Source: an uncultured Mollicutes bacterium (GTDB taxonomy: Bacteria; Bacillota_I; Bacilli_A; ML615J-28; CAG-313). Taken from it: a stretch of DNA of 64,000 bases. Positions 47,826 to 61,805 of the stretch are shown here, one piece after another. A program made the position numbers and the translations under genes. Location: the NCBI GenBank assembly GCA_900548675.1, contig URLJ01000001.1, positions 73,855 to 137,854 on the forward strand, in the 5' to 3' direction. Position 1 is the stretch's first letter; each line of letters begins with the position of its first letter. Under the pieces are notes generated by a model. The model saw only the letters and a list, made by a program, of their open reading frames with translations, was not told where the DNA came from and ran no database searches.

Positions 47826-47865
47826 TTATGTTAACTTGGCGCGCCGTCCAAAAAGGTTTACATAA
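47826..47865. repeat. gene-terminal inverted-repeat element C
   Basis: TTATGTTAAC (47826-47835)...GGCGCGCC...GTTTACATAA (47856-47865). Confidence 0.6.
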
Positions 47866-47958
47866 TATGTTGCAAATAAATTAAAAAATTTTTGCATAAA
47901 CTATTGACAAAAGGGAATAATAGTAGTATAATTAATACAACAAAGGGGGAATATAAAA

Positions 47959-48273
47959 ATGAAATTTATAAATATGATAAGAGAAATTATGCAAATGGAT
48001 ATTGAAAAAGGATTTAAAAGAAAAATGTTATTTTTGGGTTGTTTAGAGGCAATTTTAGGAGCTTATAAACTATTAATAAAATTACCAGTATATTTTTTTG
48101 GTTTACCTTTTAATATTTTACACAAAATTGGTGAATTTGTTGCTGATGGTTGTATGAATATAATGTGGGCTATTGATGAGTTACCAGATGTCAAATTGGC
48201 TAAAAAAGAAGACAAAGATATATTAGTTCAAAAATTAAAAGAAAAATATAATAGAAAAGTATTGACAAAATAA
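47959..48273 (+). CDS. hypothetical protein with hydrophobic segment
   Basis: RBS AAAGGGGGAA. 104 aa. Confidence 0.4.
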   Translation: MKFINMIREIMQMDIEKGFKRKMLFLGCLEAILGAYKLLIKLPVYFFGLPFNILHKIGEFVADGCMNIMWAIDELPDVKLAKKEDKDILVQKLKEKYNRKVLTK

Positions 48274-48322
48274 AATGTATATGTTATAATATAATTAAGT
48301 TAAGAGAAGGGAAGAGATTAAA

Positions 48323-49021
48323 ATGAAAATTGATAAAAGAAAAAAATATTTAATGGTGTTAGATGTTGAAACTGCAAACTCAAATGTAGAAAAAGGTGCA
48401 AAAAACGATGGTTTAGTTTATGATTTAGGACTAACAGTAATTGATAAAAAAGGACAAATTTACGAAAAGAAAAGTTTTGCAATAAAAGAAATTTTTGACT
48501 GGTCTGAGCTTATGTCAACTGCTTATTATAAAAATAAATTACCAAAATATTATGAGAAATTAAAAAACAAAACAATGGAAAAAGTAAGTATTTGGACTGC
48601 ACGAAAAATAGTTAAAAATTTAATAGAAAAATATAATATAACAGAAGTTTATGCTTTTAATGCTTTATTTGATTATACAACATTAAATAACACAGTTAGA
48701 TATTTAAGTGGTTCAGGTTGTAGATGGTTTTTCCCTTATGGTACAAAAATATGTGATATTTGGCACATTGCTTGTCAAGTGTTAGGAACACAAAAAACTT
48801 TCCAATGGGAAAATGTTAGAAATGCAAAAGGAAATCTAATAACAAACGCAGAACGAATGTTTGGTTATATAGACCAAAATGAAGATTTTGAAGAAGAACA
48901 CACAGGACTTGCAGATACACTAATTGAGGGGCAAATACTTGTTCGTTGTTTTAATAATCATAAATCAATTGATAAAAAAATCAATAGAAGTTGTTGGAGA
49001 ATACCACAAAAAGTTGCTTAG
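48323..49021 (+). CDS. DEDDh 3'-5' exonuclease (DnaQ-like), paralog 1
   Basis: Exo I LDVETAN, Exo II YAFNALFD, Exo III HTGLADT. Paralogous to the 57683-58447 product. Confidence 0.55.
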   Translation: MKIDKRKKYLMVLDVETANSNVEKGAKNDGLVYDLGLTVIDKKGQIYEKKSFAIKEIFDWSELMSTAYYKNKLPKYYEKLKNKTMEKVSIWTARKIVKNLIEKYNITEVYAFNALFDYTTLNNTVRYLSGSGCRWFFPYGTKICDIWHIACQVLGTQKTFQWENVRNAKGNLITNAERMFGYIDQNEDFEEEHTGLADTLIEGQILVRCFNNHKSIDKKINRSCWRIPQKVA

Positions 49022-49049
49022 GCAACTTTTTCTTTTTGACAAAATAATA

Positions 49050-49116
49050 TTATGTTAACTTATCCCGCCGGCGCGAAAACGAACAAATGTTTGGTGTAAC
49101 CTTCAGGTTTACATAA
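49050..49116. repeat. gene-terminal inverted-repeat element D, enclosing a Cheo-box-like site
   Basis: TTATGTTAAC (49050-49059)...CCGCCGGCG...CGAACAAATGTTTG...GTTTACATAA (49107-49116). Confidence 0.6.
49080..49093. promoter_or_regulatory. LexA Cheo-box-like site CGAACAAATGTTTG
   Basis: GAAC-N4-GTTT matches the Gram-positive SOS box CGAACRNRYGTTCG with one mismatch. Confidence 0.4.
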
Positions 49117-49224
49117 TAACTTACAAATAATTGTCAAAAAGAATTTTAAAAAATTTTGTATATTCTCTTGACTTTTGCATATAATAGTAGTATAATAAAT
49201 ATATAAAGAAAAGGGGATGATAAT

Positions 49225-49362
49225 ATGAATGAAATAATTAATAGGTTAGTTGAAAATGCAATACAAAAATATGGATTTGAACACAAAAAGACAATAGCAA
49301 TTGTAAAAAATGCTGAAAACTTAAAAGAAAAATATGAGTTAGGAATTTTAAAAATTTGTTAA
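49225..49362 (+). CDS. small hypothetical protein (45 aa)
   Basis: RBS AAAGGGGATGA before ATG 49225, behind its own TTGACT-N17-TATAAT promoter at 49167-49196. Not in the ORF track because it is under 60 aa. Confidence 0.3.
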   Translation: MNEIINRLVENAIQKYGFEHKKTIAIVKNAENLKEKYELGILKIC

Positions 49363-49574
49363 AAAACTATTGACAAGATAAACAAAGTATGTTATAATAT
49401 AAGTACAGTAAGAAAAGAAGTCAAGACAAAATAAAAATAAAAAGTTTTAAAAAAGTCTTGACAAACACAATAAAGTATGTTATAATAAATACATAAAGAG
49501 AAGTAAAAAATCTTGAAAATTCTCTGAAAAGATTTATAAAAAAATTAAAATTTGAAAGGATTAGGTGATGTTTT

Positions 49575-49946
49575 ATGGCAAAATTAACAGTAGCAAAAAT
49601 CAATGAAATGGCAAGAGGAGTTGCAATGGAGGAAATAGCAAAAAATGGCTTAGTAAACTTCCTACAAATAGAAGGAACTAAATTTGCAAAAGATTTTGAA
49701 TTTGAAACAGAAGAAGGCAAAATGACAAAAACTGTAAGAATTGATGTAGTTGTTCCAAAATTAGAAGAAGGGGAAAATGCTGAATTTCTAGCAGAAGATT
49801 ACCAATTAAGACTAAAAGAAAAAAAAGAAAATGCTAAAGCAAAAGCAGAAGCAAAGGCTAAAAAAATTGCAAGAGATGAAAAAAGAAGAGCAGAAAAAAA
49901 GGCAAATGAAACAAACCCAGTAATTAAGAGAACTATAAAAGAATAG
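49575..49946 (+). CDS. hypothetical protein, paralog family A (second copy)
   Basis: Shares MxKLTxAK, VRIDVVVPK and AEDY motifs and a K-rich tail with the 46755-47108 product. Confidence 0.45.
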   Translation: MAKLTVAKINEMARGVAMEEIAKNGLVNFLQIEGTKFAKDFEFETEEGKMTKTVRIDVVVPKLEEGENAEFLAEDYQLRLKEKKENAKAKAEAKAKKIARDEKRRAEKKANETNPVIKRTIKE

Positions 49947-49949
49947 TCA

Positions 49950-49978
49950 AAAGGGCAAAATGCCCTTTTGTTTTTTGT
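49950..49978 (+). terminator. intrinsic terminator
   Basis: AAAGGGCAAAATGCCCTTT followed by TGTTTTTTGTTT. Confidence 0.55.
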
Positions 49979-49990
49979 TTGGTAAAGATA

Positions 49991-50035
49991 TTATGTAAAC
50001 CAAACATTTGTTCAGGCCGGCACAAGTTTACATAA
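49991..50035. repeat. gene-terminal inverted-repeat element E, enclosing a Cheo-box-like site
   Basis: TTATGTAAAC (49991-50000)...CAAACATTTGTTCAG...GGCCGGC...GTTTACATAA (50026-50035). Confidence 0.6.
50001..50015. promoter_or_regulatory. LexA Cheo-box-like site (reverse complement CTGAACAAATGTTTG)
   Basis: GAAC-N4-GTTT. Confidence 0.4.
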
Positions 50036-50127
50036 AATTCCAAAAATTTTTTAATAAAATTAGTATAAACTATTGACATTTGCACATAATAGTAGTATAA
50101 TATAAATATAGAAGGGGAGTTGATAAT

Positions 50128-50562
50128 ATGAAAAATAAAAAACTTATGGAGGCTAAAAAGTTAATTAAATCAATAGATAATGATATTCAAATCATTGTAG
50201 AAAGACACAAATATACAAGAGGGTTAACCTGTGAACCAACAGAAAAAAGAATTTATTTAGGTTTTAGGGCTACAAAAATTGAAAACCAAACATTCATAGA
50301 TTTAGTTAATGAATTAGAACCTAATTTCTTCCAGAAGTACAAAGTTAGTTTATGGCTATTAAGTGTATTACACGAAATAGGACACATTCAAACCCACGAT
50401 GAAGAACTTGAAGACGATTACAATTTTTGTGTTGATTTTCTTAATGAGTTGAAATTAAACAATGAAATTACAGAAAAAGAACAAAACGAATATTATGTAA
50501 GGTTAGACTTAGAACAAATGGCAACACAATGGGCAATAGATTATGTAAAGAAGGCATTTTAG
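50128..50562 (+). CDS. putative zinc metallopeptidase (HExxH; ImmA/IrrE- or SprT-like)
   Basis: HEIGH motif inside LLSVLHEIGHIQTHDEE, with a downstream Glu. 144 aa. Confidence 0.4.
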   Translation: MKNKKLMEAKKLIKSIDNDIQIIVERHKYTRGLTCEPTEKRIYLGFRATKIENQTFIDLVNELEPNFFQKYKVSLWLLSVLHEIGHIQTHDEELEDDYNFCVDFLNELKLNNEITEKEQNEYYVRLDLEQMATQWAIDYVKKAF

Positions 50563-50591
50563 CCTTCTTTTTTTATACCATAATTACCATT

Positions 50592-50627
50592 TTATGTAAA
50601 CTTGGCTTGCCGGCGCGGTTTACATAA
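50592..50627. repeat. gene-terminal inverted-repeat element F
   Basis: TTATGTAAAC (50592-50601)...GCCGGCGCG...GTTTACATAA (50618-50627). A degenerate Cheo-like CAAACATTTGTTTG follows at 50649-50662. Confidence 0.55.
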
Positions 50628-50689
50628 CAACTTTACATAATGCCGCACCAAACATTTGTTTGTCAAATTTCAACTCTTTATTGCCGGCA

Positions 50690-50835
50690 CGCTCGCAGCC
50701 TACTGTCAAATTTCTACCACCCTCGCCGCCTCCTAAGGAGCTGCAAAGGAGCTGGGAGCTGCGTTGTCAAATTTTCGCCAGGAGCTGCGTTCAACCTCCC
50801 AGGTTTACATAATATGTTTACAGGAGCTGCAAAGC
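50690..50835 (+). repeat. GC-rich GGAGCTGC repeat island with TGTCAAATTT x3
   Basis: (A/C)AGGAGCTGC occurs 5 times and TGTCAAATTT(C) 3 times. The track ORF 50640-50852 is judged a spurious product of these repeats. Confidence 0.5.
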
Positions 50836-50906
50836 CAACGTTTGACTTTTAGTACAAATTCATGTATAATTATATTATAGAAAAAATAAAGAAAGGGTTG
50901 ATTTAA

Positions 50907-51212
50907 ATGGGTAATAGAGATAGAATAATTAGATGGGACGACGAAAACAATGCACACAGATATTTTGTTAATGGCAGATTAGTAGGATGTGGATATGACT
51001 TTTTAGAAGTATTCGAGAAAGCTGCACCATTCTTACACATTGGCAGAGAAATAGTAACTCGTCAAGTTTGTCTTTGTGATATTGACAGCGACTTATCAGA
51101 TACAAAAACAGGTATGATAGTAGATTTCTTAAACGAAGCTAAAAGATTAACAGAATTTCAAGAAAAAGCATTATACGAATTTGACTTCACATCTTTGTTA
51201 GAATTGATATAA
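50907..51212 (+). CDS. hypothetical protein (101 aa)
   Basis: RBS AAAGGGTTGA. Promoter at 50845-50875. Confidence 0.4.
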   Translation: MGNRDRIIRWDDENNAHRYFVNGRLVGCGYDFLEVFEKAAPFLHIGREIVTRQVCLCDIDSDLSDTKTGMIVDFLNEAKRLTEFQEKALYEFDFTSLLELI

Positions 51213-51219
51213 CGCACAT

Positions 51220-51248
51220 TTGACTTTTAGTTAAAAGTGTTATATAAT
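51220..51248 (+). promoter_or_regulatory. promoter of the tRNA/ncRNA operon (TTGACT-N17-TATAAT)
   Basis: -35 at 51220-51225 and -10 at 51243-51248. Confidence 0.55.
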
Positions 51249-51280
51249 ATTATTATAGAAAATAAATAATATTTTCTTAG

Positions 51281-51612
51281 CGATGAAAACCACCGTATCA
51301 GTGGCTAGTCGCACACAAATCCTTAGGTCAGTAATTAAGCGCAGTCATGATGGGCTTAGTGAAGGATAAGGTTGACTGTTAGTGAACGAGGACTATCAAG
51401 TTATCAGTAGGAAGAAACTGTTCCCAGGTTGTTGGAATCGGGGTGAGAGAACCAACCAGACCGAAACTGAAAGAGGCTCCGCACCTATGCGTTAAATGGC
51501 GATAGCAGAGATTAGTTATCTGCGAGTAAGAGACATATTATTTAATTAGTGCACACTCTCTTGCGTGCGGGGTTTGTATCATTTAGAACTATAGTCGCCC
51601 CGCAATTTATAT
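51281..51612 (+). ncRNA. structured RNA with group-I-intron-like core motifs (R-like GAACGAGGACTATCA, S-like AGAACTATAGTCGCC); no exons recognised
   Basis: P7-like pairing between GACTA (51392-51396) and TAGTC (51592-51596). Many nested hairpins. Lies between the promoter and tRNA-Leu(TAG). No ORF. Confidence 0.3.
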
Positions 51613-51689
51613 GCATTAGTATGCAAACTGGCAAAGCAGCTGGTCTTAGAAACCAGTGTATGAAAGTTCGACTCTTTCCTAATGCACCA
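51613..51689 (+). tRNA. tRNA with anticodon TAG (Leu by codon table) but class-I architecture (5-nt variable loop)
   Basis: Acceptor GCATTAG/CTAATGC, A73, CCA encoded. Anticodon stem CTGGT/ACCAG around loop CTTAGAA. T-arm GAAAG-TTCGACT-CTTTC. Confidence 0.6.
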
Positions 51690-51757
51690 AATTATGGTTT
51701 GCGAGGCACCCATCGGTGAGAGCTGCACATCTCACATGAGAAAACCTCGGTGCATAT

Positions 51758-51844
51758 GCACCTTTGGCGGAATAGGCAGACGCGTGGGACTTAAAATCCC
51801 ATGGACGAGAGTCCGTCCCAGTTCGATTCTGGGAAGGTGCACCA
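51758..51844 (+). tRNA. tRNA-Leu(TAA), class II with long variable arm
   Basis: Acceptor GCACCTT/AAGGTGC. Anticodon stem TGGGA/TCCCA around loop CTTAAAA. Variable arm TGGACGAGAGTCCGT. T-arm CCCAG-TTCGATT-CTGGG. CCA encoded. Confidence 0.7.
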
Positions 51845-52002
51845 GCAGGGCGAACCCGTAACGTCCCTTTGCAAATAGAATATCGGGTGGTGTGGATAAG
51901 CGAAGCTACAATGCTCAATAATAGTAGTTCTTGTTATTTATTTTTTCGTATACCATTTGGGTATACAGAACGCGCGGCGTCGCAAGCGACAGCCGTTTAT
52001 AT

Positions 52003-52089
52003 GGGTCTTTGGGTGAGCTGGCTAAAACCGCCAGACTGTAAATCTGGTCTCTTCGGAGTACCCTGGTTCGAATCCAGGAGGGCCCACCA
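52003..52089 (+). tRNA. tRNA-Tyr(GTA) with long variable arm
   Basis: Anticodon stem CCAGA/TCTGG around loop CTGTAAA. Variable stem CTC-TTCG-GAG. T-arm CCTGG-TTCGAAT-CCAGG. Acceptor GGGTCTT/AGGGCCC. CCA encoded. Confidence 0.65.
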
Positions 52090-52095
52090 TTATAT

Positions 52096-52171
52096 TCGCG
52101 GGTGGTGTAATTGGTAACACGACGGACTTTGACTCCGTAGAGTGTTGGTTCGAGACCAGCCCCGCGAGCCA
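52096..52171 (+). tRNA. tRNA-Gln(TTG)
   Basis: U1-A72 acceptor TCGCGGG/CCCGCGA. D-stem GTGT/ACAC. Anticodon stem ACGGA/TCCGT around loop CTTTGAC. T-arm GTTGG-TTCGAGA-CCAGC. G73 then CCA. Confidence 0.65.
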
Positions 52172-52254
52172 CAGCTACGCAAGTAGCGAAACACACCCCT
52201 TTCTTTTGTAGGTCAGCTGTCTCGTGTAGACCTGACAGCTGGCTAATTTCAAAT

Positions 52255-52283
52255 TTGACTTTTAGTGTGAATTTTGATATAAT
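52255..52283 (+). promoter_or_regulatory. internal promoter TTGACT-N17-TATAAT upstream of tRNA-Val
   Basis: -35 at 52255-52260 and -10 at 52278-52283. Confidence 0.5.
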
Positions 52284-52306
52284 ATTATTATAGTAAAAGT
52301 AAATAT

Positions 52307-52382
52307 AGTCCGTTAGCTCAGCTGGTAGAGCATCGCCCTTACAAGGCGGAGGTCGTTGGTTCGAACCCAACACGGACTACCA
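52307..52382 (+). tRNA. tRNA-Val(TAC)
   Basis: Acceptor AGTCCGT/ACGGACT. D-arm GCTC-AGCTGGTA-GAGC. Anticodon loop CTTACAA. T-arm GTTGG-TTCGAAC-CCAAC. CCA encoded. Confidence 0.7.
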
Positions 52383-52550
52383 TTCGAGGATAACTAACTG
52401 GTCTCACCTCTTTAAAAATGAGAACTCTGCTGCGGAGCGCGTACCATCGCAGGGACAAATAAATTAGGCGGAGCAATGCCCTAAATGCTCTGAACAAATA
52501 TGGGCACTTATATAGCGGGGTGGAGCAGTTGGCAGCTCGCCAGGCTCATA

Positions 52551-53111
52551 GAAAATTGTGGCTCCATGTAGAAATACATAGATGAACTGTGGATGAATTC
52601 AGAGGAGGCTAAGTCTTTTGGAAAAGAAAATTATAGGTTATGATGATGTATATACAATAGATACTAATGGTATTGTATATAGAAATGGTAAACCAATGTC
52701 CCCAAGGGATAATGGTATAGGTTATCAGCAAATAGGATTGCGTTTAAATCGCAGACGATACAATGTTTATATTCACAGATTGGTTTGGGAAACTTTTAAA
52801 GGAGATATACCAAATGGATATGAGATTAACCATATAGACCATAATAAACATAATAATAACTTAGATAATTTAGAGTTAGTATCTCACTCTACCAATTTAA
52901 AAAAATCAGTAGAAAGATATGGATACTATGGTTCTATGAATAGACCAAAAGATATGCGAACTTTGAGCCAAGCCGAAGATACATCTTCGGAAGGTGCAGA
53001 GACTACTGGAGAGGTATAGTCCTCTTAATAACCAGTTTAAGTATCCACTACCTAAGTCGTAAGATATGGTAAAGACATAGTCCACTCTATAATGAAAATT
53101 ATAGGTAAGTA
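52551..53111 (+). mobile_element. group-I-like intron carrying an HNH homing endonuclease ORF
   Basis: R-like TTCAGAGGAGGCTAAGTC (52598-52615) and S-like AAAGACATAGTCC (53071-53083) could pair to form P7 (GGCTA/TAGTC). The ORF lies between them, and its RBS GAGGAGG (52602-52608) is embedded in the R element. Confidence 0.45.
52618..53019 (+). CDS. intron-encoded HNH homing endonuclease (TTG start)
   Basis: Layout typical of phage HNH homing endonucleases (HNH_3/NUMOD-like): conserved YIHRLVW, then EINHIDHNKHNNNLDNLELVSHSTN. RBS 9 nt upstream of the TTG start. Confidence 0.55.
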   Translation: MEKKIIGYDDVYTIDTNGIVYRNGKPMSPRDNGIGYQQIGLRLNRRRYNVYIHRLVWETFKGDIPNGYEINHIDHNKHNNNLDNLELVSHSTNLKKSVERYGYYGSMNRPKDMRTLSQAEDTSSEGAETTGEV

Positions 53112-53177
53112 AACCCGAAGGTCGTAGGTTCAAATCCTACTCCCGCAACCAATAGAAGATCATAGAGGTTGGTAAAA

Positions 53178-53459
53178 ATGGCAATTATCTATTATATAGA
53201 CAACAAAGCAAACTGGAAAGGATATGTTGGTTGTTCTAAAACTCCACTATCTCATAGATGGGGGAAACATAAATATTTATTAAGGCATAACCTACATTCT
53301 AACAAGGAACTGCAAGATGACTGGAATAAATATGGAGAGCACAGCTTTAGTGCTTTTGTTATAGAAACCTGCCCAGATAGTAAGATGCTAGAGAGAGAAA
53401 AGTATCATATAAACAGATTACAAACAAATGTCAGAGGGGTTGGGTACAACCAGAAGTAA
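53178..53459 (+). CDS. GIY-YIG endonuclease, catalytic-domain-only (93 aa)
   Basis: IYYIDNKANWKGYVGCS...R...KH...E...N is the classic GIY-YIG motif set. Starts 27 nt after the tRNA-Met 3' exon. No DNA-binding extension. Confidence 0.5.
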   Translation: MAIIYYIDNKANWKGYVGCSKTPLSHRWGKHKYLLRHNLHSNKELQDDWNKYGEHSFSAFVIETCPDSKMLEREKYHINRLQTNVRGVGYNQK

Positions 53460-53748
53460 CTGATTTTTAAGAGGGATAGTTTGGTGGGCACCTCACCATT
53501 AAGAGCTGGTGCTGAATTGGACAACTATTATTTGCTACCAATTATTTGAAAAAAGTTTTAAAAAAGACTTGATTCAAGGTAGCAACATAGTTTATAATAT
53601 AAATGTAAAATGAAAAAGGAAAAATAAAAAAGACTTCTAATCCTTTACCATTTAGCGTAATAGCTCTGGTTTATTAGAAGCAAAAAATATTTATTTTAGA
53701 AAGGGTATCCAATTGGCTGCTATAAGGTTGGATATTAGGGTGAAAATT

Positions 53749-54000
53749 ATGGCTAAAGAAAGATTTAATGTAATGGGAAAAGAACTTACTGCAAATGAAA
53801 AAGCAGTATATGAATTCGTAAGGGACAACGGAGTAGTTGATTACAAGATGGTTGCTGAAAAACTAAATATCAGTCCAAAGAGTGCATCAAGCACACTAGC
53901 AAGACTAGAAGCAACTCATTCACTATTAAAGAAAAATGCTCCAAAAGTTGCTACAACTTATGAAGTAGAAGCTGAAGCTGACGAAGTTGAAGCTGAATAG
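53749..54000 (+). CDS. small winged-helix-like protein, family W paralog 1
   Basis: MAKERFNVMGKELTANEKAVYEFV...SPKSASSTLARLEATHSLLKK aligns with four other copies. Acidic C-terminus. Confidence 0.4.
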   Translation: MAKERFNVMGKELTANEKAVYEFVRDNGVVDYKMVAEKLNISPKSASSTLARLEATHSLLKKNAPKVATTYEVEAEADEVEAE

Positions 54001-54002
54001 TA

Positions 54003-54040
54003 ATAGGAGTATCGGCTTAGCCGAGCTCCTATAATATATT
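54003..54040 (+). terminator. hairpin terminator (weak T-tract)
   Basis: ATAGGAG-TATCGGCTTAGCCGA-GCTCCTAT. Confidence 0.35.
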
Positions 54041-54366
54041 AAGGTTTTTATTCTTCACAATATAAAAGGGGTTGCTTGTGGTTGCCCCAACCAAAAACAT
54101 AAGTGGTGGTAGGTTTGCTCGTTAGGGGCTGCGAGGGTAAATAAAGAACAGCAGAACTGGTTGCATAATACGAGTGGCAAGGCAAGAGCCTTGTCTTTTT
54201 TTTATTTTTTAATTTTAGACTTGACAAACGGTACTTGCATATGATAAAAAAACTTTTTTATTTTTTTTTGCAAAAAAGACTTGACGAGATCCCTTAAAAT
54301 GAATTATAATTATTATAATGGGAGTGATATATATAAAAAAAAAGAAAAATTTACGGAGATGATATT

Positions 54367-54858
54367 ATGTGGAAATCGTATGATGATATATATGAGATAA
54401 GCACTGGTGGTAAGATAAGAAATAAGAAAAGTCCTGATAAGATATTAAAGACATATGTTAATAATTGTGGATATGAGAAATTCAAGGGCCACAATGTACA
54501 TCAGTATGTACATAGAATGGTAGCGGAGACATTCATACCTAATCCATCTGGTAAAGAACAAGTGAACCATAAAAATGGGGATAAGCTGGATAACAGGGCA
54601 GAAAATCTTGAATGGGTAACTCGTAGTGAGAACGTATCTCACGCTTATAAGTGCCTAGGAAGAAAACGTAGTTACTGTGGTTCAAAAGGACATAATGCTA
54701 AAAAGGTATATCAGTATTCATTAGAAGGTCAGCTCCTTACTACCTATAATTCGGTGGGTGCAGCTGCAGAAGCTGTCGGAGGTGCAAGTCCTAACATCAG
54801 CAGATGTTGCAATGGGCATATTAAAACATACAAAAACTTTGTATGGAAAAATGAATAA
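54367..54858 (+). CDS. HNH homing endonuclease (free-standing)
   Basis: YVHRMVAETF and NHKNGDKLDNRAENLEWVTRSEN follow the same pattern as the intron-encoded HNH. Own promoter TTGACG...TATAAT at about 54287-54320. Confidence 0.5.
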   Translation: MWKSYDDIYEISTGGKIRNKKSPDKILKTYVNNCGYEKFKGHNVHQYVHRMVAETFIPNPSGKEQVNHKNGDKLDNRAENLEWVTRSENVSHAYKCLGRKRSYCGSKGHNAKKVYQYSLEGQLLTTYNSVGAAAEAVGGASPNISRCCNGHIKTYKNFVWKNE

Positions 54859-54913
54859 AAATACTTGACTTGTCCTTCCTTAAAGATTTATGATATAATG
54901 GGAGAGTATTATT

Positions 54914-54927
54914 AAAAAAAAAAAAAA
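54914..54927 (+). repeat. A14 homopolymer at the 5' end of an ORF-less transcript
   Basis: 14 consecutive A immediately after TATAATGGGAGAG. Confidence 0.7.
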
Positions 54928-55345
54928 TAGATCCCAGCTCCCTTAGCCTGATCCAGCTCCAAATCCCAGCTCCCACCTAAGGGGTTAGCTATGAGGGCGC
55001 AGCTCCAGATTGCTACCAGGGGATAGGTGGCAATGAATTATTTCCTGGGAAATATTTGCTAGCAAAAAATGGGTAGACTCCCCCCTCCCCTTCTTCTGGC
55101 AGTTAGATCTCATTACACGGCTCGGGTCTAACTATCGCCCACATAATTAATTTTTCTTTTCCTCCTTTCTTTATAATATAATTATACATCTTTCAGCTCC
55201 CAATAGTCAAGTATTTTTTGAAAAATTTTAGCAGCTCCCATTGCCCCCCACCTTCCAGCTCCCATAGCGCAGCTCCGGTAGGTAAAGCGCAGCTCCCACC
55301 CAGCTCCCAATAGGTGGCAATGCCAGCTCCCTGCTACCAAATTAT
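54928..55345 (+). repeat. CCAGCTCC(C) / ATAGGTGGCAA repeat island (the minus strand reads GGGAGCTGG)
   Basis: At least 10 copies of CAGCTCC and 3 copies of ATAGGTGGCAA in two blocks (54928-55010 and 55193-55345). Promoter-driven with no credible ORF; the track ORF 55182-55433 (-) is judged a spurious product of these repeats. Confidence 0.5.
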
Positions 55346-55492
55346 AGGTGGCAACACCTGATCTGATCCACCTTGACCGGATCTCTTGCCCTTGGGATAA
55401 TTTTTGCAATAAATTTTTAAAAAAGACTTGCATTTTACTCCATAATTTGATATAATTATATTGTAAATAAAAAAGAAAGGAAGAGTGGTAAA

Positions 55493-55672
55493 ATGAAACA
55501 AAAACTAATTAAAAAATTGCACGATCTAATGCTACAAATAATTACTTGTAATGATGCTGAACTTGACAAGATAGGAATTGAACTTGCCGAAATAGAAAAA
55601 CAATTAATTAATTGGCAAGAAAAAAATCTCAAAAAAAATAAAAAAATACTTGACTTTAAGGACAAGATGTAG
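55493..55672 (+). CDS. small hypothetical protein (59 aa)
   Basis: RBS AAAGGAAGAGTGG before ATG 55493. Its 3' end overlaps the next promoter. Confidence 0.35.
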   Translation: MKQKLIKKLHDLMLQIITCNDAELDKIGIELAEIEKQLINWQEKNLKKNKKILDFKDKM

Positions 55673-55740
55673 TATAATTAATATATCAAATGAAGAAATA
55701 AAAGAAAAGTAAAAAAAGTTAAAAAAATTAAAAAAAACAC

Positions 55741-55769
55741 TTGACTTTTAAATCTGAATTTGATATAAT
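55741..55769 (+). promoter_or_regulatory. consensus promoter TTGACT-N17-TATAAT
   Basis: -35 at 55741-55746 and -10 at 55764-55769. Confidence 0.55.
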
Positions 55770-55833
55770 ATATATGTAAATAAAAAAAGAAAGGGCATTA
55801 ACAAATTAGTCGGTTAATGTAATGGTGATTAAA

Positions 55834-56079
55834 ATGGCTAAAACAAAAGAATTATTTAATGTTAGAGGAGTAAACTTAACTGCTCACGAAAAAAATGTTT
55901 ACGACAAAGTAAAGGAATTAGGCACTGTTGACTACAACCAAGTAGCAACTGCTTGTAATGTATCTACTAAGTCTGCTATTGCAACATTAGCAAGATTAGA
56001 AAAAACTCACGGTTTATTAAGAAAAAATGAACCAGTAAAAGTAACTACTTATGAAGTTGCTGATGTAGAGGGCGAATAG
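55834..56079 (+). CDS. small winged-helix-like protein, family W paralog 2
   Basis: MAKTKELFNVRGVNLTAHEKNVYDKV...STKSAIATLARLEKTHGLLRKNEPVKVTTYEV. Confidence 0.45.
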   Translation: MAKTKELFNVRGVNLTAHEKNVYDKVKELGTVDYNQVATACNVSTKSAIATLARLEKTHGLLRKNEPVKVTTYEVADVEGE

Positions 56080-56092
56080 TCCTCTTTTTTTA
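56063..56092 (+). terminator. intrinsic terminator
   Basis: AGAGG-gcgaatagt-CCTCT followed by T7. Confidence 0.5.
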
Positions 56093-56104
56093 TTTACTGT
56101 AAAG

Positions 56105-56118
56105 CGAACAAATGTTTG
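56105..56118. promoter_or_regulatory. LexA Cheo-box-like site CGAACAAATGTTTG
   Basis: GAAC-N4-GTTT, 8 nt upstream of a TTGACA. Confidence 0.4.
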
Positions 56119-56207
56119 TCAAATACTTGACAAAAAATTTTTTTATTTTTTTTATTAAAAATACTTGACTTTGTGGGGGAAAGTGTGATATAATTAAAGG
56201 GGAAGTA

Positions 56208-56227
56208 TTTTTTTTTTTTTTTTTTTT
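56208..56227 (+). repeat. T20 homopolymer
   Basis: 20 consecutive T directly downstream of promoter 56170-56198, at the 5' end of an ORF-less GC-rich transcript. Confidence 0.7.
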
Positions 56228-56271
56228 AGTAGCTTCGCAGCTGCCACAGCAGCAGCTCAGCTCCCAGCTCC

Positions 56272-56291
56272 GACACACCCGGGTGCGTTGT
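56272..56291 (+). repeat. conserved 21-nt motif copy 1 (GACACACCCGGGTGCGTTGT)
   Basis: Member of the 7-copy family with consensus TGATACGCCCGGNTGAGTTGTA. Confidence 0.5.
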
Positions 56292-56352
56292 TGCCCCCCG
56301 TTAGGGGGTAAGGGGCTAGGTGGTTGCCCCTGGGTTGGGTTAACCCAAGATC

Positions 56353-56374
56353 TGATACGCCCGGTTGAGTTGTA
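56353..56374 (+). repeat. conserved 21-nt motif copy 2 (TGATACGCCCGGTTGAGTTGTA), flanked by AGATCT and preceded by the GGGTTAACCC palindrome
   Basis: Direct sequence match. Confidence 0.55.
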
Positions 56375-56403
56375 AGATCTTTTTGATCCGGGAGAGGATC
56401 TCA

Positions 56404-56425
56404 CGATACGCCCGGATGAGTTGTC
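56404..56425 (+). repeat. conserved 21-nt motif copy 3 (CGATACGCCCGGATGAGTTGTC)
   Basis: Direct sequence match. Confidence 0.55.
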
Positions 56426-56535
56426 TTTCATTATTATAATATAAAAAAACTTGAAAAACTTTTATAAAAATGCTTGACTTCTTTTTCTTTATTTGGTATA
56501 ATTAAGATGTAATAAAGAAAGGAAAGGTGTTAAAA

Positions 56536-56727
56536 ATGACTGAAACACAAGAATTGATTTTAAATAAGTTAGGGGAATTATGTAGAATTTATCCACAACA
56601 AAGATTAGGACAAATAATCTATAATTATATTTTAAGGTATTGTCCTAATAACGATTGTTTCTTTATAGAAGATACTAAACTTTTAGAATTATTAGAAACA
56701 ATTACAAAAGAAATTGAAGAAAAGTAA
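56536..56727 (+). CDS. hypothetical small protein (63 aa)
   Basis: RBS AGGAAAGGTG before ATG 56536. Promoter at 56473-56503. Confidence 0.4.
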   Translation: MTETQELILNKLGELCRIYPQQRLGQIIYNYILRYCPNNDCFFIEDTKLLELLETITKEIEEK

Positions 56728-56797
56728 AAAAAATACTTGACTTTAATTTCTACCTATGATATAATTAAGATGTAATAAAGAAAGGAAAGTGATAAAA

Positions 56798-56920
56798 ATG
56801 GCAATGACACCTGCAAAAAGACATCAAATAAGAGCAAAGCAAGAGGCAATGCAAAAAGCAAGAAAAGAGGAAAGACTTGGACTTGCTAAAAAAACAGCAA
56901 AGAAAAAGGGAAGAAAATAA
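56798..56920 (+). CDS. small basic protein (40 aa, Lys/Arg-rich)
   Basis: RBS AAAGGAAAGTG before ATG. Own promoter. Followed by the hairpin GGGAAGAAA-ataa-TTTCTTCCC. Confidence 0.35.
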   Translation: MAMTPAKRHQIRAKQEAMQKARKEERLGLAKKTAKKKGRK

Positions 56921-56964
56921 TTTCTTCCCCCCTCAAAAAAAATTAAAAAAAGTTAAAAAAGGTA

Positions 56965-56993
56965 TTGACATTTGACCTAATAAATGTTATAAT
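56965..56993 (+). promoter_or_regulatory. consensus promoter TTGACA-N17-TATAAT
   Basis: -35 at 56965-56970 and -10 at 56988-56993. Confidence 0.55.
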
Positions 56994-57045
56994 TAATATG
57001 TAAATGAGAGATAGCCACTCTCAAAAAGAAAGGAAAGTGATAAAA

Positions 57046-57291
57046 ATGGCAAAAACTAAAGAAACTTTTAATGTAAGAGGTGTAGAACTAACTGCACACG
57101 AAAAAAATGTTTATGAAAAGGTTGTAGAACTTGGAAAAGTTGACTATAATCAAATTGCTACAAGTTGTAATGTAAGTCCTAAAAGTGCGATAGCAACACT
57201 TGCTAGACTTGAAAAAACACACGGACTTCTAAAGAAAAATGAACCTGTAAAGGTTACAACTTACGAAATCGCCGAAGATATAGAGGACTAG
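57046..57291 (+). CDS. small winged-helix-like protein, family W paralog 3
   Basis: MAKTKETFNVRGVELTAHEKNVYEKV...SPKSAIATLARLEKTHGLLKKNEPVKVTTYEI. Confidence 0.45.
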   Translation: MAKTKETFNVRGVELTAHEKNVYEKVVELGKVDYNQIATSCNVSPKSAIATLARLEKTHGLLKKNEPVKVTTYEIAEDIED

Positions 57292-57308
57292 AAACCTCTA
57301 TATTTTTT
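57270..57308 (+). terminator. intrinsic terminator
   Basis: TATAGAGG-actagaaa-CCTCTATA followed by T7. Confidence 0.5.
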
Positions 57309-57320
57309 TATGTTCTAATA

Positions 57321-57334
57321 CGAACAAATGTTCG
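57321..57334. promoter_or_regulatory. LexA Cheo-box, perfect match CGAACAAATGTTCG
   Basis: Exact fit to the Gram-positive SOS box consensus CGAAC-N4-GTTCG. Confidence 0.5.
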
Positions 57335-57465
57335 CTTTTGGCCCCCCCAAAAAAAATTAAAAAAATTACAAAAAACTATTGACTTTCACTTGCATTTTTG
57401 CTATAATTATGTTAGAGGTGGAGGAGAGCCCCTTATAAAAAAGATCTTCCTTTAGATCATCTGAT

Positions 57466-57487
57466 GATACGCCCGGATCAGTTGTAT
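57466..57487 (+). repeat. conserved 21-nt motif copy 4 (TGATACGCCCGGATCAGTTGTA)
   Basis: Sits in an ORF-less unit behind promoter 57383-57412, preceded by the AGATCT...AGATC inverted repeat. Confidence 0.55.
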
Positions 57488-57682
57488 GGGTTGGGATGCT
57501 CCCAAAAAAATTAAAAAAAATATAAAAAAAGTATTGACTTTTGATTTGGTCTATGATATACTTAATATGTAATCAAGGAAAGACACCAAAGAAAAAAAAT
57601 AAAAAAAATTATAAAAAAGTGTTGACACTGATTAGAAAGTATGTTATAATAAATATGTAATTAAGAAAGGAAAGTGAATTAA

Positions 57683-58447
57683 ATGGAAACAAAAGGTTAT
57701 CCACAAAAACAAAAAAATATCAATGTTAGAAAGGTTAAAAATGTTTTAGGAATTGATACTGAAACTATAATGGACTTACAAAATGCAATGCCATTTGATA
57801 TCGGTTATGTTGTTTACAATAACAAAGAAGATAAAATCGAAAAACAAGGAACTTATCTTGTTAGAAAGTTTGTAAATAATAAATACATTATTTTATCAAG
57901 TTGGAGTGCTAACAAGTACGAAAGATATTATAAACCACTTTTAAACACTAAAACAAAAGATGTTAAAGTTGAAAGTGTAGAAAAAATAGCAAAAGAATTT
58001 GCTAAAATAATTAAAAAATATGATATCAAATATATGTTTGCACACAATGGACAATTTGATTATCAAGCACTTAAAAGATTATTTGAAGATGTTGGAGTTA
58101 AAAACCCTTTTGAAAATCTTGATATAATTGATACAATGATGTTAAGTTATAAAACTATTACAACTACAAAAGAATATGAAAACTTTTGTAAAGAAAATAA
58201 AAACATCACAAAATTACAAGATAAAAAAGTTGTTAGTCGTTTTATTACTGATAGTAATAGAGTAAGACAAACTGCCGAAAGTATCTTCGCATTTATAGAT
58301 AAAAATATTGATTTTGAAGAAAATCACACAGGACTTGAAGATATAAAAATTGAATTAGAAATCTTTAAGTATTGCAAGGGTAAAAAAGCAATTTTCCCTA
58401 TCAATACACAACCAACTTGGCGTGATTTTGCAAAATTAGAAAGTTAA
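57683..58447 (+). CDS. DEDDh 3'-5' exonuclease (DnaQ-like), paralog 2
   Basis: Exo I GIDTETI, Exo II HNGQFDY, Exo III HTGLEDI. Confidence 0.5.
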   Translation: METKGYPQKQKNINVRKVKNVLGIDTETIMDLQNAMPFDIGYVVYNNKEDKIEKQGTYLVRKFVNNKYIILSSWSANKYERYYKPLLNTKTKDVKVESVEKIAKEFAKIIKKYDIKYMFAHNGQFDYQALKRLFEDVGVKNPFENLDIIDTMMLSYKTITTTKEYENFCKENKNITKLQDKKVVSRFITDSNRVRQTAESIFAFIDKNIDFEENHTGLEDIKIELEIFKYCKGKKAIFPINTQPTWRDFAKLES

Positions 58448-58585
58448 AAAAACTTTCTTTTTTTTGTAAAAAAGTATTGACTTTATACCAAAACAATGCT
58501 ATAATTATAATGGGGGTGGATGATGATGATATATATAACAACGCCGCCTGGCGTGTCATAAACGTCCCCCTTGGGTTAACCCAAA

Positions 58586-58607
58586 TGATACACCTGGATG
58601 AGTTGTA
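58586..58607 (+). repeat. conserved 21-nt motif copy 5 (TGATACACCTGGATGAGTTGTA), preceded by the TTGGGTTAACCCAA palindrome
   Basis: Sits in an ORF-less unit behind promoter 58477-58505, whose transcript starts ATAATGGGGGTGG. Confidence 0.55.
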
Positions 58608-58745
58608 GACAAAAGCCTAGAATAAAAAAGTTAAAAAAGTTTTAAAAAACTATTGACAATGACCTAATACTATGCTATAATATATATGTAAGATAAAGAA
58701 AGATATATCTTACAAATGATTATTTAAGAAAGGAAAGTGATACAA

Positions 58746-58976
58746 ATGAATAATCAAAAAACTAAAAAAAGAGTATTAAAGAAAGGTGTTGAAAAGGTAT
58801 TCAGTACAATTGTTGCTATTTGGTTTTTTTGGATAATGACTACAATTGACACAATAGACAACCCATTTAATGAAATTAAAAGTTATTTAATCATTACTGG
58901 AATATTAACAATACTTGCCTTATTTAGTTTCATAATGCTAATGAAATACTCTAATTTATTTGAAGATGCCGACTAG
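58746..58976 (+). CDS. small membrane protein (two TM helices)
   Basis: RBS AAAGGAAAGTG. Hydrophobic segments FFWIMTTI and ITGILTILALFSFIML. Confidence 0.4.
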   Translation: MNNQKTKKRVLKKGVEKVFSTIVAIWFFWIMTTIDTIDNPFNEIKSYLIITGILTILALFSFIMLMKYSNLFEDAD

Positions 58977-59119
58977 TGCATCTTTTTTTATTATTGCATC
59001 AGGTATAAAAAAAATAAAAAAAAATTGCAAAAAAGTATTGACTTTTGTTTCACAAAATGATATAATTATAATGGGAGAGAATAATAATAATATAAAAAAA
59101 GATCTAGGGGTGGATCTGA

Positions 59120-59141
59120 TGACACGCGTGGGTGAGTTGTA
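59120..59141 (+). repeat. conserved 21-nt motif copy 6 (TGACACGCGTGGGTGAGTTGTA)
   Basis: ORF-less unit behind promoter 59036-59064. Preceded by AGATCTAGGGGTGGATCT. Confidence 0.55.
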
Positions 59142-59238
59142 AGAAAGTTAAAAAAAATTAAAAAACTTTTAAAAAAGTATTGACTTTAATCTAATAAAGT
59201 GGTATACTTAATATGTAATCAAGAAAGGAATGAAAAAA

Positions 59239-59601
59239 ATGAATTATAGAAACTTTAAAATTGAAATGGAAGAAAAGGACTTAAAGAAAACAAACTTAAT
59301 CTATAAATGGTTAATAACTATGAAAGATGGAAAAGTTGCTACTTATGTTGGAATATCAACAAGACCACTTGATGAAAGAACAAAAGAACACATAAGAGAT
59401 AAAAGAACATATTTTGATAAGTTCTTAACTGAAAATGAAAACAATATCAAAAGTATTAAAATTGAGGTTGTAAAAGAGTTAAAAAGAAACTTTAAAGATA
59501 TGAAAACACAACTTGAAAAAAGAGAAACTAAACTTATAATAAAAGATAAGTTAGAAAATGCTTTTAATCTTAATAGTAAAATTGATAAAAGATTTGCATA
59601 A
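59239..59601 (+). CDS. GIY-YIG-like endonuclease (divergent)
   Basis: LIYKWLITMKDGKVATYVGIS...R...EH fits the GIY...YIG...R...H/E spacing loosely. Confidence 0.3.
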   Translation: MNYRNFKIEMEEKDLKKTNLIYKWLITMKDGKVATYVGISTRPLDERTKEHIRDKRTYFDKFLTENENNIKSIKIEVVKELKRNFKDMKTQLEKRETKLIIKDKLENAFNLNSKIDKRFA

Positions 59602-59780
59602 AAAGTATTGACTTTTAAAAAGATATTTGATATAATAATATTGTCAATAGGAAATGAACTTAATAAAAAAAATTAAAAAAGTTAAAAAAACTATTGACAA
59701 TATCAATTATATTTGATATAATAAATATGTAAATAAGAAAAGAACTTATTTACAAGTAGCAAAGAAAGGAAAGTGATATT

Positions 59781-60026
59781 ATGGCTACAAAAAAAGAATT
59801 ATTTAATGTAAAGGGTGTTGAAATGACAGCACACGAAAAAATGGTTTTTGATAAGGTTGTTGAACTTGCAAGACCAGTAAGTTATAAGGAAATTGCAAAA
59901 GAGTGCAACATTAGTGAAAAAAGTGCTTGTGCTACACTTGCAAGATTAAATGCTACAAAGGGAGTTTTGAAGAAAAACGAACCTATCAAAGTTACAACTT
60001 ATGAAATAAATGAAGATATCGATTAA
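59781..60026 (+). CDS. small winged-helix-like protein, family W paralog 4
   Basis: MATKKELFNVKGVEMTAHEKMVFDKV...SEKSACATLARLNATKGVLKKNEPIKVTTYEI. Confidence 0.45.
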   Translation: MATKKELFNVKGVEMTAHEKMVFDKVVELARPVSYKEIAKECNISEKSACATLARLNATKGVLKKNEPIKVTTYEINEDID

Positions 60027-60040
60027 GATATCTTTTTTTT
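60008..60040 (+). terminator. intrinsic terminator
   Basis: AAGATATC-gattaa-GATATCTT followed by T9. Confidence 0.5.
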
Positions 60041-60251
60041 TAGTGCAAAAAAAAATTAAAAAAATTTGCAAAAAAGTATTGACTTTATACTTAAAGAGTG
60101 ATATAATTATAATGGGGGAGAATAATAATATATAAAAAAAACGATCTACTTTTGGATCACAAAAAAATGAAAAAACTTTAAAAAAAATATTGACTTTATA
60201 CCATTTATTTGGTATAATATATATGTAAGATAAAGAAAGGAATGATTAAAA

Positions 60252-60464
60252 ATGAAAAAGAAAAGAGTGTTAAAAAGTTGGGTTAAGGAAACATTATTAT
60301 TTATTGCTTGTGGTATTGCTTTATTTGGTTGTTTCAAGTTATTACAATTACAAGACCAACACGAATACAATAAAGCAATTGAAAGATGTGGAAGTGTTGA
60401 AAACCTAAACACACACTACACACAACAAGGCGACAAATACTACACTTGCAAGGTTGAAAAATAA
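60252..60464 (+). CDS. small secreted/membrane protein with N-terminal signal-like segment and a conserved Cys pair
   Basis: MKKKRVLKSWVKETLLFIACGIALFGC... resembles a signal peptide; a lipoprotein reading is uncertain. Confidence 0.35.
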   Translation: MKKKRVLKSWVKETLLFIACGIALFGCFKLLQLQDQHEYNKAIERCGSVENLNTHYTQQGDKYYTCKVEK

Positions 60465-60571
60465 CCTTGTAAGTGATAGAAAAAAAACTTAAAAAAGTTT
60501 TAAAAAAGTGTTGACTTTATACCAATAGTATGATATACTATATATGTAATCAAGGAAAGGAAAGTGATAAA

Positions 60572-60841
60572 ATGATTACTAGAAACCATAAAAACATTAT
60601 GAAATATGCAAACATAATGACAAACATTAAAGATATTGCAAAAGCAACTAAACAAACTGAAAGTCAAGTTGAAAGTGCAATAATCACACTTGCAAGAAAA
60701 GACTTAATGACAAAGTCAAAAGCAAAAGAACTTTTGAAAGACAAGAAGTCAGTTAAGTTCATAGACTTGCCATTTGGAAGTAGACTTGCAAAACCACTTC
60801 CAGTATCAACTGAAAAAGTAAAGACTATTTATTGCAAATAG
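60572..60841 (+). CDS. winged-helix-like protein, distant family W member (paralog 5)
   Basis: ATKQTESQVESAIITLARKDL parallels the (S/T)xKSAIATLARLEK core. Own promoter at 60512-60540. Confidence 0.35.
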   Translation: MITRNHKNIMKYANIMTNIKDIAKATKQTESQVESAIITLARKDLMTKSKAKELLKDKKSVKFIDLPFGSRLAKPLPVSTEKVKTIYCK

Positions 60842-60874: not shown

Positions 60875-61378
60875 ATGAGAAAAGCCGATAACCTACCTAT
60901 TAAATGGGTGTTAGATATGGACGACACACTAGCACACTTTCACGAACAAAAAAACGCACTTGAAAGATTTGCTACTGAAAAAAACTTCTTTAATATTTTG
61001 AAACCTAGTAAAATGACAAAGTTTATCAAACAACTTGTTGAACGCAACGAACTTGACGCAAAAGATATTTTTATTGTTAGTGCTTCACCTAATGAACAAG
61101 CCGACAAAGATAAACTACAATGGATTGAAAGACACTTGCCTGAAATACCAAAAAGTAACATTATGTTTACAAGACTTGGAGAAAATAAAGCCGAATTGTT
61201 TATCAATAAATACCACTTATCAAAAGATGACTTCAAGTATTTTATGCTAATTGATGACTACACAAAAAACCTTATTGAGTGGAAAAACTTTGGTGGAATT
61301 GCTAAAAAGTACATCAATGAATACAACAACACAACAAAGAACTATCTTAACTACAACATCAGTACAATAGTATTATAA
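60875..61378 (+). CDS. HAD-superfamily 5'(3')-deoxyribonucleotidase-like protein (paralog 2)
   Basis: DMDDTLAHF (HAD motif I). Collinear with the 47314-47790 product (ISASPN, WIEKYL/WIERHL, GENKAE, LLDDYTKNL/LIDDYTKNL). Confidence 0.5.
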   Translation: MRKADNLPIKWVLDMDDTLAHFHEQKNALERFATEKNFFNILKPSKMTKFIKQLVERNELDAKDIFIVSASPNEQADKDKLQWIERHLPEIPKSNIMFTRLGENKAELFINKYHLSKDDFKYFMLIDDYTKNLIEWKNFGGIAKKYINEYNNTTKNYLNYNISTIVL

Positions 61379-61733: not shown

Positions 61734-61747
61734 CGAACAAGTGTTTG
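61734..61747. promoter_or_regulatory. LexA Cheo-box-like site CGAACAAGTGTTTG
   Basis: GAAC-N4-GTTT. Confidence 0.4.
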
Positions 61748-61790: not shown

Positions 61791-61805
61791 CGAACAAGCG
61801 TTCAG
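61791..61805. promoter_or_regulatory. LexA Cheo-box-like site CGAACAAGCGTTCAG
   Basis: GAAC-N4-GTTC with both half-sites perfect. Confidence 0.45.

Follow-up and report, generated by a model that had tools for sequence, protein, structure and literature searches.

Why would a phage carry four versions of one small protein, each encoded behind a promoter of its own and two of them followed by what reads as an operator of host LexA? The question is raised by a 64,000-nucleotide (nt) stretch of contig URLJ01000001.1 (GenBank assembly GCA_900548675.1, positions 73,855 to 137,854), which is filed under an uncultured Mollicutes bacterium, is called the window below, and is part of a large tailed phage with a low guanine + cytosine (GC) content (~30%). 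A first-pass annotation, made from the letters of the window alone, had described five paralogous winged-helix-like proteins of about 85 residues between positions 53749 and 60841, and had suggested that they form a set of DNA-binding specificity variants. The reading developed here, to which we give an even chance, is that the phage proteins are dimeric winged-helix binders of palindromic operators in the early region of the phage, where they would time or shut off its promoters.

Four old paralogues under purifying selection

Within the window the family consists of four open reading frames (ORFs), listed with their lengths in amino acids (aa) and, where it was noted, the sequence of the predicted third helix; E is the expectation value against the family profile hidden Markov model (HMM).

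53749-54000 (+): copy 1, type A; 83 aa; helix 3 KSASSTLARLEATHS; acidic tail EAEADEVEAE; family HMM E = 4.8e-45
55834-56079 (+): copy 2, type B; 81 aa; helix 3 KSAIATLARLEKTHG
57046-57291 (+): copy 3, type C; 81 aa; 86% identical to copy 2, synonymous sites saturated
59781-60026 (+): copy 4, type D; 81 aa; helix 3 KSACATLARLNATKG

Pairwise amino acid identity among the copies is 53-86%, and the family HMM scores them at E values of 1e-45 to 1e-50, with no other ORF of the window coming near. Four of the five paralogues described at first are thus upheld, starts included, and the consensus string given for them agrees with the computed family consensus; the fifth ORF (HMM E = 0.46) falls outside the family and is taken up below. 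Synonymous sites are saturated (proportion of synonymous differences, pS, 0.55-0.75) and the ratio of nonsynonymous to synonymous change (dN/dS) is 0.06-0.35, so the copies are old duplicates held under purifying selection and not recent ones.

The four types recur in identical order in the related phages L001 and L006-L010, while L020 and L021 have broadly similar gene sets in which the last member is more divergent. Type A, with orthologues in L001, L006, L009, L010, L011, L018 and L020, is recognized by AKERFNVMGKELTANEK..SASSTLARL.. and a long acidic tail; types B and C share MAKTKE.FNVRGV..SAIATLARLEKTHG, and type D has MATKKE..ARPVSYKEIA..SACATLARLNATKG. LARL shows no variation across 114 sequences, and at least 90% of them keep K46, S47, A48 and T51. 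The least variable parts are helix 3 and what follows it, the wing included; the variable sites are confined to the exposed faces of helices 1 and 2 (H1 and H2), the tail and just two helix-3 positions (49/50, which read IA, SS or CA). Distant members retain the signature S(A/V)R(A/S)TLARLEKTHGLL together with acidic C-termini (..DAE or ..EAE). A near-invariant helix 3 with variation elsewhere argues against a rapidly diversifying set of DNA specificities, and the idea of diversified specificity variants is weakened further by the four old orthologous types in their fixed order. As far as the sequences can tell, the pattern fits four long-standing sub-functions that would have most of one binding surface in common.

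An exhaustive HMMER pass over 1.84 billion representatives returned only 32 matches, and the family as a whole comprises 154 clusters at 90% identity, metagenomic without exception. It is confined to a clade of uncultivated low-GC human-gut phages of ~100-135 kb. When copy 3 and two distant members were compared by tblastn with 50,697 phage records, no homologue in a cultured phage turned up, and a scan of genome contigs, with one representative genome per species, found no copy in a prophage or bacterial genome. IMG/VR contigs of 102-131 kb and contigs from human-gut metagenomes carry sequence near-identical to the region; a megablast search with it gave a trivial 80-nt match only.

A predicted winged-helix fold in an early region

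The AlphaFold model of copy 3, built with 114 homologues, has a mean predicted local distance difference test score (pLDDT) of 82 and consists of a beta-hairpin (residues 7-16), H1 (17-29), H2 (34-41), H3 (45-57) and an acidic tail. The three-helix bundle with an H2-turn-H3 motif agrees with the winged-helix-like fold that had been proposed, and an alignment of the family to the LexA wing is plausible; on the strength of this model we treat the proteins as winged-helix proteins. The profile libraries place them in no established family. TrmB gives sub-threshold matches in 92 of the 114 members, and Fe_dep_repress gives sub-threshold or borderline ones in 63; the only copy to pass a Pfam cut-off, and barely, is copy 1 (Fe_dep_repress, 27.5 bits against a cut-off of 26), with copies 2 and 3 at 14-16 bits. 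Proteins of 81-83 aa have no second domain, which speaks against membership of the DtxR/MntR family. Matches to MarR structures also stay below threshold (5aip, E = 8.5e-4; 9z72, E = 1.1e-3), and membership of that family is contradicted by the absence of flanking helices in 81 aa and by MarR_2 matches that are sub-threshold and limited to 14 of the 114 members. The PADLOC and NCBIfam defence and anti-defence libraries yielded sub-threshold matches to Csa3/CasR winged helix-turn-helix (wHTH) proteins and nothing else.

The genes lie on the plus strand in a region (~46.2-60.5 kb) that has more than 30 sigma-A promoters, all in one orientation and each matching the consensus at 11-12 of 12 positions. 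Five transfer RNA (tRNA) genes, HNH and GIY-YIG homing-endonuclease genes, two genes for NT5C 5'-deoxynucleotidases and two for DEDD exonucleases share the region, and together with the promoter array they make it look like an early region of host-takeover type.

LexA-type boxes follow two of the four types

The palindrome CGAAC(N)4GTTCG is the LexA consensus of B. subtilis, also called the Cheo box (PMC4551915), and it was against this consensus that boxes were scored. With at most one mismatch, the window has six boxes where 0.34 would be expected; five of the six are in the early region. Two stand immediately beyond copies 2 and 3.

56105-56118 (+): Cheo box, CGAACAAATGTTTG; starts 26 nt past the copy 2 stop codon
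57321-57334 (+): perfect Cheo box, CGAACAAATGTTCG; starts 30 nt past the copy 3 stop codon

The arrangement is a property of the B and C types across the loci compared: a box at +24 to +32 past the stop codon follows 25 of 25 distinct B/C-type gene ends, against 0 of 16 for type A, 1 of 11 for type D and 2 of 392 for unrelated control ORFs, counts that include close relatives and represent coupling in at least seven divergent lineages. Among the 25 are gene ends of the distant phage L016, whose proteins have only the core signature in common with the family. Read from the sequence, the next unit, usually one with no ORF, starts ~85-90 bp downstream of the box. The promoters and SOS boxes of the clade are of Firmicute type, and the boxes after two of the copies suggest a regulatory circuit of the phage. 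These SOS operators belong to a phage that was not found as a prophage among one representative genome per species.

Further Cheo boxes lie at 49080-49093, 61734-61747 and 61791-61804, with others in reverse orientation at 50003-50013 and 50651-50661, and relatives have up to eight in 20 kb (L001). Helix-3 residue 56 (E as opposed to N or Q) was considered as a correlate of box presence; it was suggestive in L018 and at L020 8522, was contradicted by L020 9986, and was dropped.

A possible control system and its alternatives

In the mechanism that we favour, host sigma-A RNA polymerase would read each paralogue gene early, from a strong promoter belonging to that gene. The products would bind double-stranded DNA sequence-specifically, as dimers on palindromic operators in the early region of the phage itself, and would time or shut off the interleaved consensus promoters and ORF-less units. 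A hint of dimers comes from natural tandem fusions of two domains (~150 aa; P0126, P0127, L009 11723-12178 and L025 6002-6457), which occupy the type D position and have one or two Cheo-like boxes after them. The B and C types would be tied to the LexA-type operator (CGAAC-N4-GTTCG) just past their terminators in one of two ways, either by occupying the boxes themselves, as uncleavable LexA-like operator binders, or by acting beside host LexA bound there. That the B and C proteins themselves bind the adjacent boxes seems to us doubtful. A wider scheme, which we regard as improbable, would make these two types surrogates of host LexA that are of non-LexA origin, consist of a DNA-binding domain (DBD) alone and resist cleavage; during lytic infection they would sit on phage and possibly host operators and control transcription from SOS boxes while LexA is cleaved. 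In that scheme types A and D would read the CAGCTCC arrays and GGTRGCAA inverted repeats, and the proteins and ORF-less units together would form an undescribed multi-operator system of early control.

Several observations weigh against the favoured mechanism. LexA_DNA_bind is absent from the Pfam matches listed for the four copies (E <= 1) and, over 114 members, from the 25 most-matched of 69 families, while the positive controls pass (B. subtilis LexA, 100 bits; the phage protein GIL01 gp6, 51.6 bits). Scored with the family HMM, B. subtilis LexA reaches 7.0 bits and gp6 2.6 bits, as compared with 22 bits for a MarR protein. The wing region (residues 60-75) is modelled at pLDDT 77-83 and DSSP assigned no strands to it, and the proteins have acidic tails and are as a whole acidic or near neutral. 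A box downstream of its gene and ~85-90 bp before the next start is in no classical position for repression. The boxes match host LexA specificity perfectly, and host LexA alone could explain them. Finally, in L018 and L019 there are three family genes whose helix 3 is almost unchanged, and no Cheo box in 10 kb; a different palindrome of the 5-N4-5 form, AGCAA-N4-TTGCT, occurs there 44 nt after one family gene. This case is easier to explain if boxes track the LexA specificity of the host than if they track a phage protein.

Part of this evidence also supports a rival account, in our view somewhat unlikely, according to which host LexA and not the phage proteins binds the Cheo boxes, as components of the ORF-less units or as a LexA sink, and the wHTH proteins are takeover factors that are unrelated to the boxes and act on host DNA or proteins. 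Besides L018 and L019, the perfect agreement of the boxes with the Firmicute LexA consensus (PMC4551915) speaks for it, as do boxes at a distance from the family genes (in the window at 49080, 61734 and 61791; in L001 within ORF-less units), the profiles in which the family is not LexA-like, and the resemblance of the region to a host-takeover module, where consensus promoters are dense and an NT5C nucleotidase and a DEDD exonuclease are each encoded twice. What it leaves unexplained is the fixed box at +24 to +32 after B and C genes only, in divergent phages, which type A genes lack altogether. The proteins might instead bind other proteins, as adaptors that resemble sigma region 4 or anti-sigma factors or that modulate LexA or RNA polymerase in the manner of GIL01 gp7, with the winged helix and acidic tail as interaction surface; the recurrence of acidic C-termini even in distant members, the placing of variation on the H1/H2 surface rather than in helix 3, sub-threshold Sigma70_r4_2 matches in 30 of the 114 members and one PHROG sigma-factor match (E = 0.0037) would suit such a role. 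We think it very unlikely: all sigma-type matches are far under the family cut-offs, no sigma factor is among the top structural matches, and the helix-3 pattern S-x-K-S-A with an invariant Arg is typical of helices that read DNA. For the sigma or anti-sigma-like factors envisaged by the first-pass annotation, Sigma70_r4 matches are likewise sub-threshold only and no structural similarity was seen, which speaks against membership of that group.

It is also conceivable, though highly improbable in our estimate, that the proteins are ribonucleoprotein partners of RNAs made from the interleaved ORF-less units, which have a 21-nt motif and CAGCUCC repeats. In its favour, promoter-driven ORF-less units stand between the family genes of every related phage, L013 retains the 21-nt motif beside a distant family gene, and the structural matches of lowest root-mean-square deviation (1.4-1.5 A) include Z-alpha domains, known binders of Z-form nucleic acids. 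Any minimal winged helix, however, would show a similarity of this last kind; the units fold with little or no more stability than expected (z-scores +0.4 to -2.8) and have no Rfam match, and no specific spacing of gene and motif was found, in contrast to the Cheo box. The first-pass annotation had suggested partners for the 21-nt motif; of the two associations, that of the family with the Cheo boxes is the stronger.

Whether the phage proteins bind the LexA boxes matters in either direction. If the proteins do bind LexA boxes, this would be convergent operator mimicry by a variant of the fold outside the LexA family; if they do not, host LexA is still wired into the early region of this phage. 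Small early phage proteins are mostly uncharacterised, and here an orphan family comes with a conserved genomic grammar and a testable hypothesis of how a large lytic gut phage meets or imitates the LexA/SOS system of its host and shuts off more than 30 promoters.

Promoters, terminators and the fifth open reading frame

The first-pass annotation had given every copy a consensus promoter and a T-tract terminator. For copies 2, 3 and 4 both elements are present; copy 1 and the fifth ORF depart from the scheme.

53569-53598 (+): type A promoter, TTGATT-N18-TATAAT, 10/12; spacer element AAGGTAGCAAC kept in relatives
55741-55769 (+): copy 2 promoter, TTGACT-N17-TATAAT, with TG extension
56067-56092 (+): copy 2 terminator, hairpin over the stop codon, then T7
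56965-56993 (+): copy 3 promoter, TTGACA-N17-TATAAT, 12/12
57274-57312 (+): copy 3 intrinsic terminator, hairpin and T-run over the stop codon
59694-59722 (+): copy 4 promoter, TTGACA-N17-TATAAT, 12/12
60015-60041 (+): copy 4 terminator, AT-rich hairpin GATATC-N6-GATATC, then T9; read from the sequence
60572-60841 (+): fifth ORF, of a separate helix-turn-helix (HTH) family with signature S.I.TLARK; co-transcribed with the NT5C gene 60875-61378

Copies 2-4 follow one plan, with a promoter of 11-12/12, a leader that is rich in purines and carries a Shine-Dalgarno sequence, and a terminator hairpin over the stop codon, that of copy 4 falling under the GC threshold of the terminator scan. Copy 1 has its promoter, at 10/12, ~150 nt upstream of the gene with a long conserved leader between, and ends in a hairpin that no T-run follows; a good terminator first appears at 54176-54195. 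That terminator, a strong one with T8, closes a GC-rich segment of ~160 nt 3' of copy 1 (54040-54205), which is partly kept in L010 (GCTCGTTAGGG.GCTGCGAGGGTAAATAAAGAACAGC) and may be an element of the 3' untranslated region or a small RNA.

The fifth ORF has a promoter of 10/12 (TTGACT-N17-TATACT) and no terminator, so that transcription runs into the NT5C gene. Its claim to be a distant paralogue was rejected on architecture: the AlphaFold model (pLDDT 78) shows a three-helix HTH with two further helices and has neither the N-terminal hairpin nor the wing, and hhalign aligns it to the family at a probability of 22-66% over helices 2-3 only. It is possibly a remote HTH relative of the main family. 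Its own family, of 12 clusters, co-occurs with the main one even in the distant L016 (32% identity) and lies directly upstream of NT5C in the window and in L001; in the distant phage L013 a bona fide member of the main family fills the slot before NT5C. One contig of 1161 bp in the European Nucleotide Archive encodes a 69-aa chimera (P0125) of fifth-ORF-type residues 1-36 and the C-terminal half of copy 3, joined precisely where both have the SAI(I/A)TLAR codons. Either natural recombination or an error of assembly could have produced it, and it was not used as evidence of homology.

ORF-less units and repeated motifs

Copies had also been said to alternate with motif-bearing units that contain no ORF. 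Such units do follow copies 2 and 3 and are kept in relatives, while strict alternation does not hold. Nothing in the units matched Rfam. An array of repeats lies between the type A and B genes.

54935-55330 (+): ORF-less unit or units; 11 CAGCTCC copies and TTGCTACC..GGTGGCAA inverted repeats

In the window CAGCTCC has 28 matches against 2.3 expected, 18 of them clustered, and a CAGCTCC array between the type A and B genes is found in nearly all relatives, including the distant L012. Clusters of the heptamer or octamer CAGCTCC(C) lie at 50737-50829 (-), 54935-55006 (+), 55194-55330 (+) and 56258-56271 (+). AGGTRGCAA has four copies against 0.9 expected, one in the spacer of the type A promoter (53577-53585) and three in the CAGCTCC units (55009-55034, 55312-55320 and 55330-55354), two of the latter within the inverted repeats; another paralogue may have this motif as its operator. 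On the minus strand (55210-55103) a consensus promoter, TTGACT-N18-TATAAT, precedes a perfect Shine-Dalgarno sequence AAAGGAGG and a 13-codon ORF, past which the sequence is rich in GGGAGCTG up to a T14 run (~54905). The segment with the Shine-Dalgarno sequence and -10 element is conserved in L012, so that transcription of the CAGCTCC unit may proceed from the minus strand.

A general form of the 21-nt motif is GAYACRCSYGG-N-(T/G)-(G/C)-(A/C)-GTTGT, with copies at 56272, 56354, 56405, 57466, 58587, 59121 and 61831, at L001 9430-9570 and at L013 ~310. Every copy is on the plus strand, in an ORF-less unit downstream of a promoter, and the motif persists in distant phages.

The surrounding early region

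The promoters of 46226-60540 (+) fall into two classes. In class I the -10 element is followed by (A/T)ATGTAA..AAGAAAGGAAAGTGAT-ATG, and these promoters serve coding cassettes, often with a 5'-terminal hairpin; class II promoters, TATAAT(TATAAT)GGGRGWG, open the ORF-less units. Paralogy extends to further pairs in the region, namely the NT5C 5'-deoxynucleotidases (47305-47790 and 60875-61378), the DEDD/RNase T-like exonucleases (48323-49021 and 57683-58447) and proteins of 119 and 123 aa of unknown function (46749-47108 and 49575-49946). Segmental duplication through unequal recombination between near-identical promoter/leader cassettes would be a plausible origin for these pairs.

A full-length Rfam group I intron match at 52853-53104 (+) scores 40.8 bits (gathering score 50; E = 1.7e-7). 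The match runs over the end of an HNH_3 ORF (52618-53019), a GIY-YIG ORF (53178-53459) comes after it, and no interrupted host gene was identified for it. Repeated intergenic modules at 49060-49130, 49985-50045 and 50590-50830 contain GTTTACATAA, TTGTCAAATTT, GCCGGC and Cheo-like half-sites in both orientations, in a layout that resembles iteron or regulatory arrays.

The structural genes occupy the minus strand (~2,000-44,600). The large terminase encoded among them (40564-42345, minus) shares 45% identity with its counterpart in Geobacillus virus E3 and 34-38% with terminases of large Enterococcus, Bacillus and Brevibacillus phages.

Comparison with known systems

One comparison is with LexA itself. 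Its DBD (PF01726) belongs to the same fold class and has the local LARLE.(K)G.(L/I) signature in common with the family; the T. maritima and E. coli LexA DBDs are among the structural matches, and LexA operators adjoin the family genes. The family segment TLARLEKTHGLLKKNEPVKVTTYEI is locally similar to B. subtilis LexA (hhalign probability 54%, 32% identity, 50 columns). Unlike LexA, the family lacks the S24 cleavage and dimerisation domain and has an extra N-terminal beta-hairpin and an acidic tail. Membership of the LexA DBD family, which the LARLE motif and the boxes had prompted, was rejected by the Pfam, HMM and hhalign tests.

GIL01 gp6, a truncated LexA homologue of 66 aa from a Bacillus tectivirus, is like the family a small stand-alone wHTH protein of a phage. 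It is an activator that acts next to LexA boxes, and its promoter region also has boxes of the CGAAC-N4-GTTCG type (PMC6182141). K38 of gp6 is essential for DNA binding (PMC6182141) and aligns with the conserved K46 of the family, at an hhalign probability of only 10%. The differences are that gp6 is a clear LexA_DNA_bind member (PF01726, E = 7.9e-14) whereas the family is not, and that gp6, present once in a temperate phage, binds a site other than that of LexA.

The best sub-threshold sequence matches of the family are to wHTH regulators of the MarR, DtxR (MntR), TrmB and Csa3 types, from which it differs at 81 aa in having no dimerisation, metal-binding or ligand-binding domains. At the level of the whole region, the host-takeover and pre-early modules of SPO1 and T5 combine arrays of very strong host-type promoters with many small monocistronic genes, and the pre-early module of T5 includes a 5'-deoxynucleotidase (dmp); the strong promoter array and two NT5C genes described here are similar. 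LexA boxes and a conserved four-paralogue set are not known from the SPO1 and T5 modules, and the tblastn search of 50,697 phage records found no homologues of the proteins in phages such as these.

In function a parallel may be T7 Gp5.7, a 7-kDa wHTH-like repressor of host RNA polymerase promoters on the phage genome (PMC5569994). Its role is the one that we propose for the family, in a phage of more than 30 consensus promoters, although Gp5.7 is a single-copy protein of a phage with its own RNA polymerase, and no sequence relationship is expected. The fold and the general role, that of a small phage wHTH regulator, are therefore of known kinds; what is new is the orphan family, its conserved organisation as four interleaved paralogues and the strict coupling of two of their types to canonical SOS operators.

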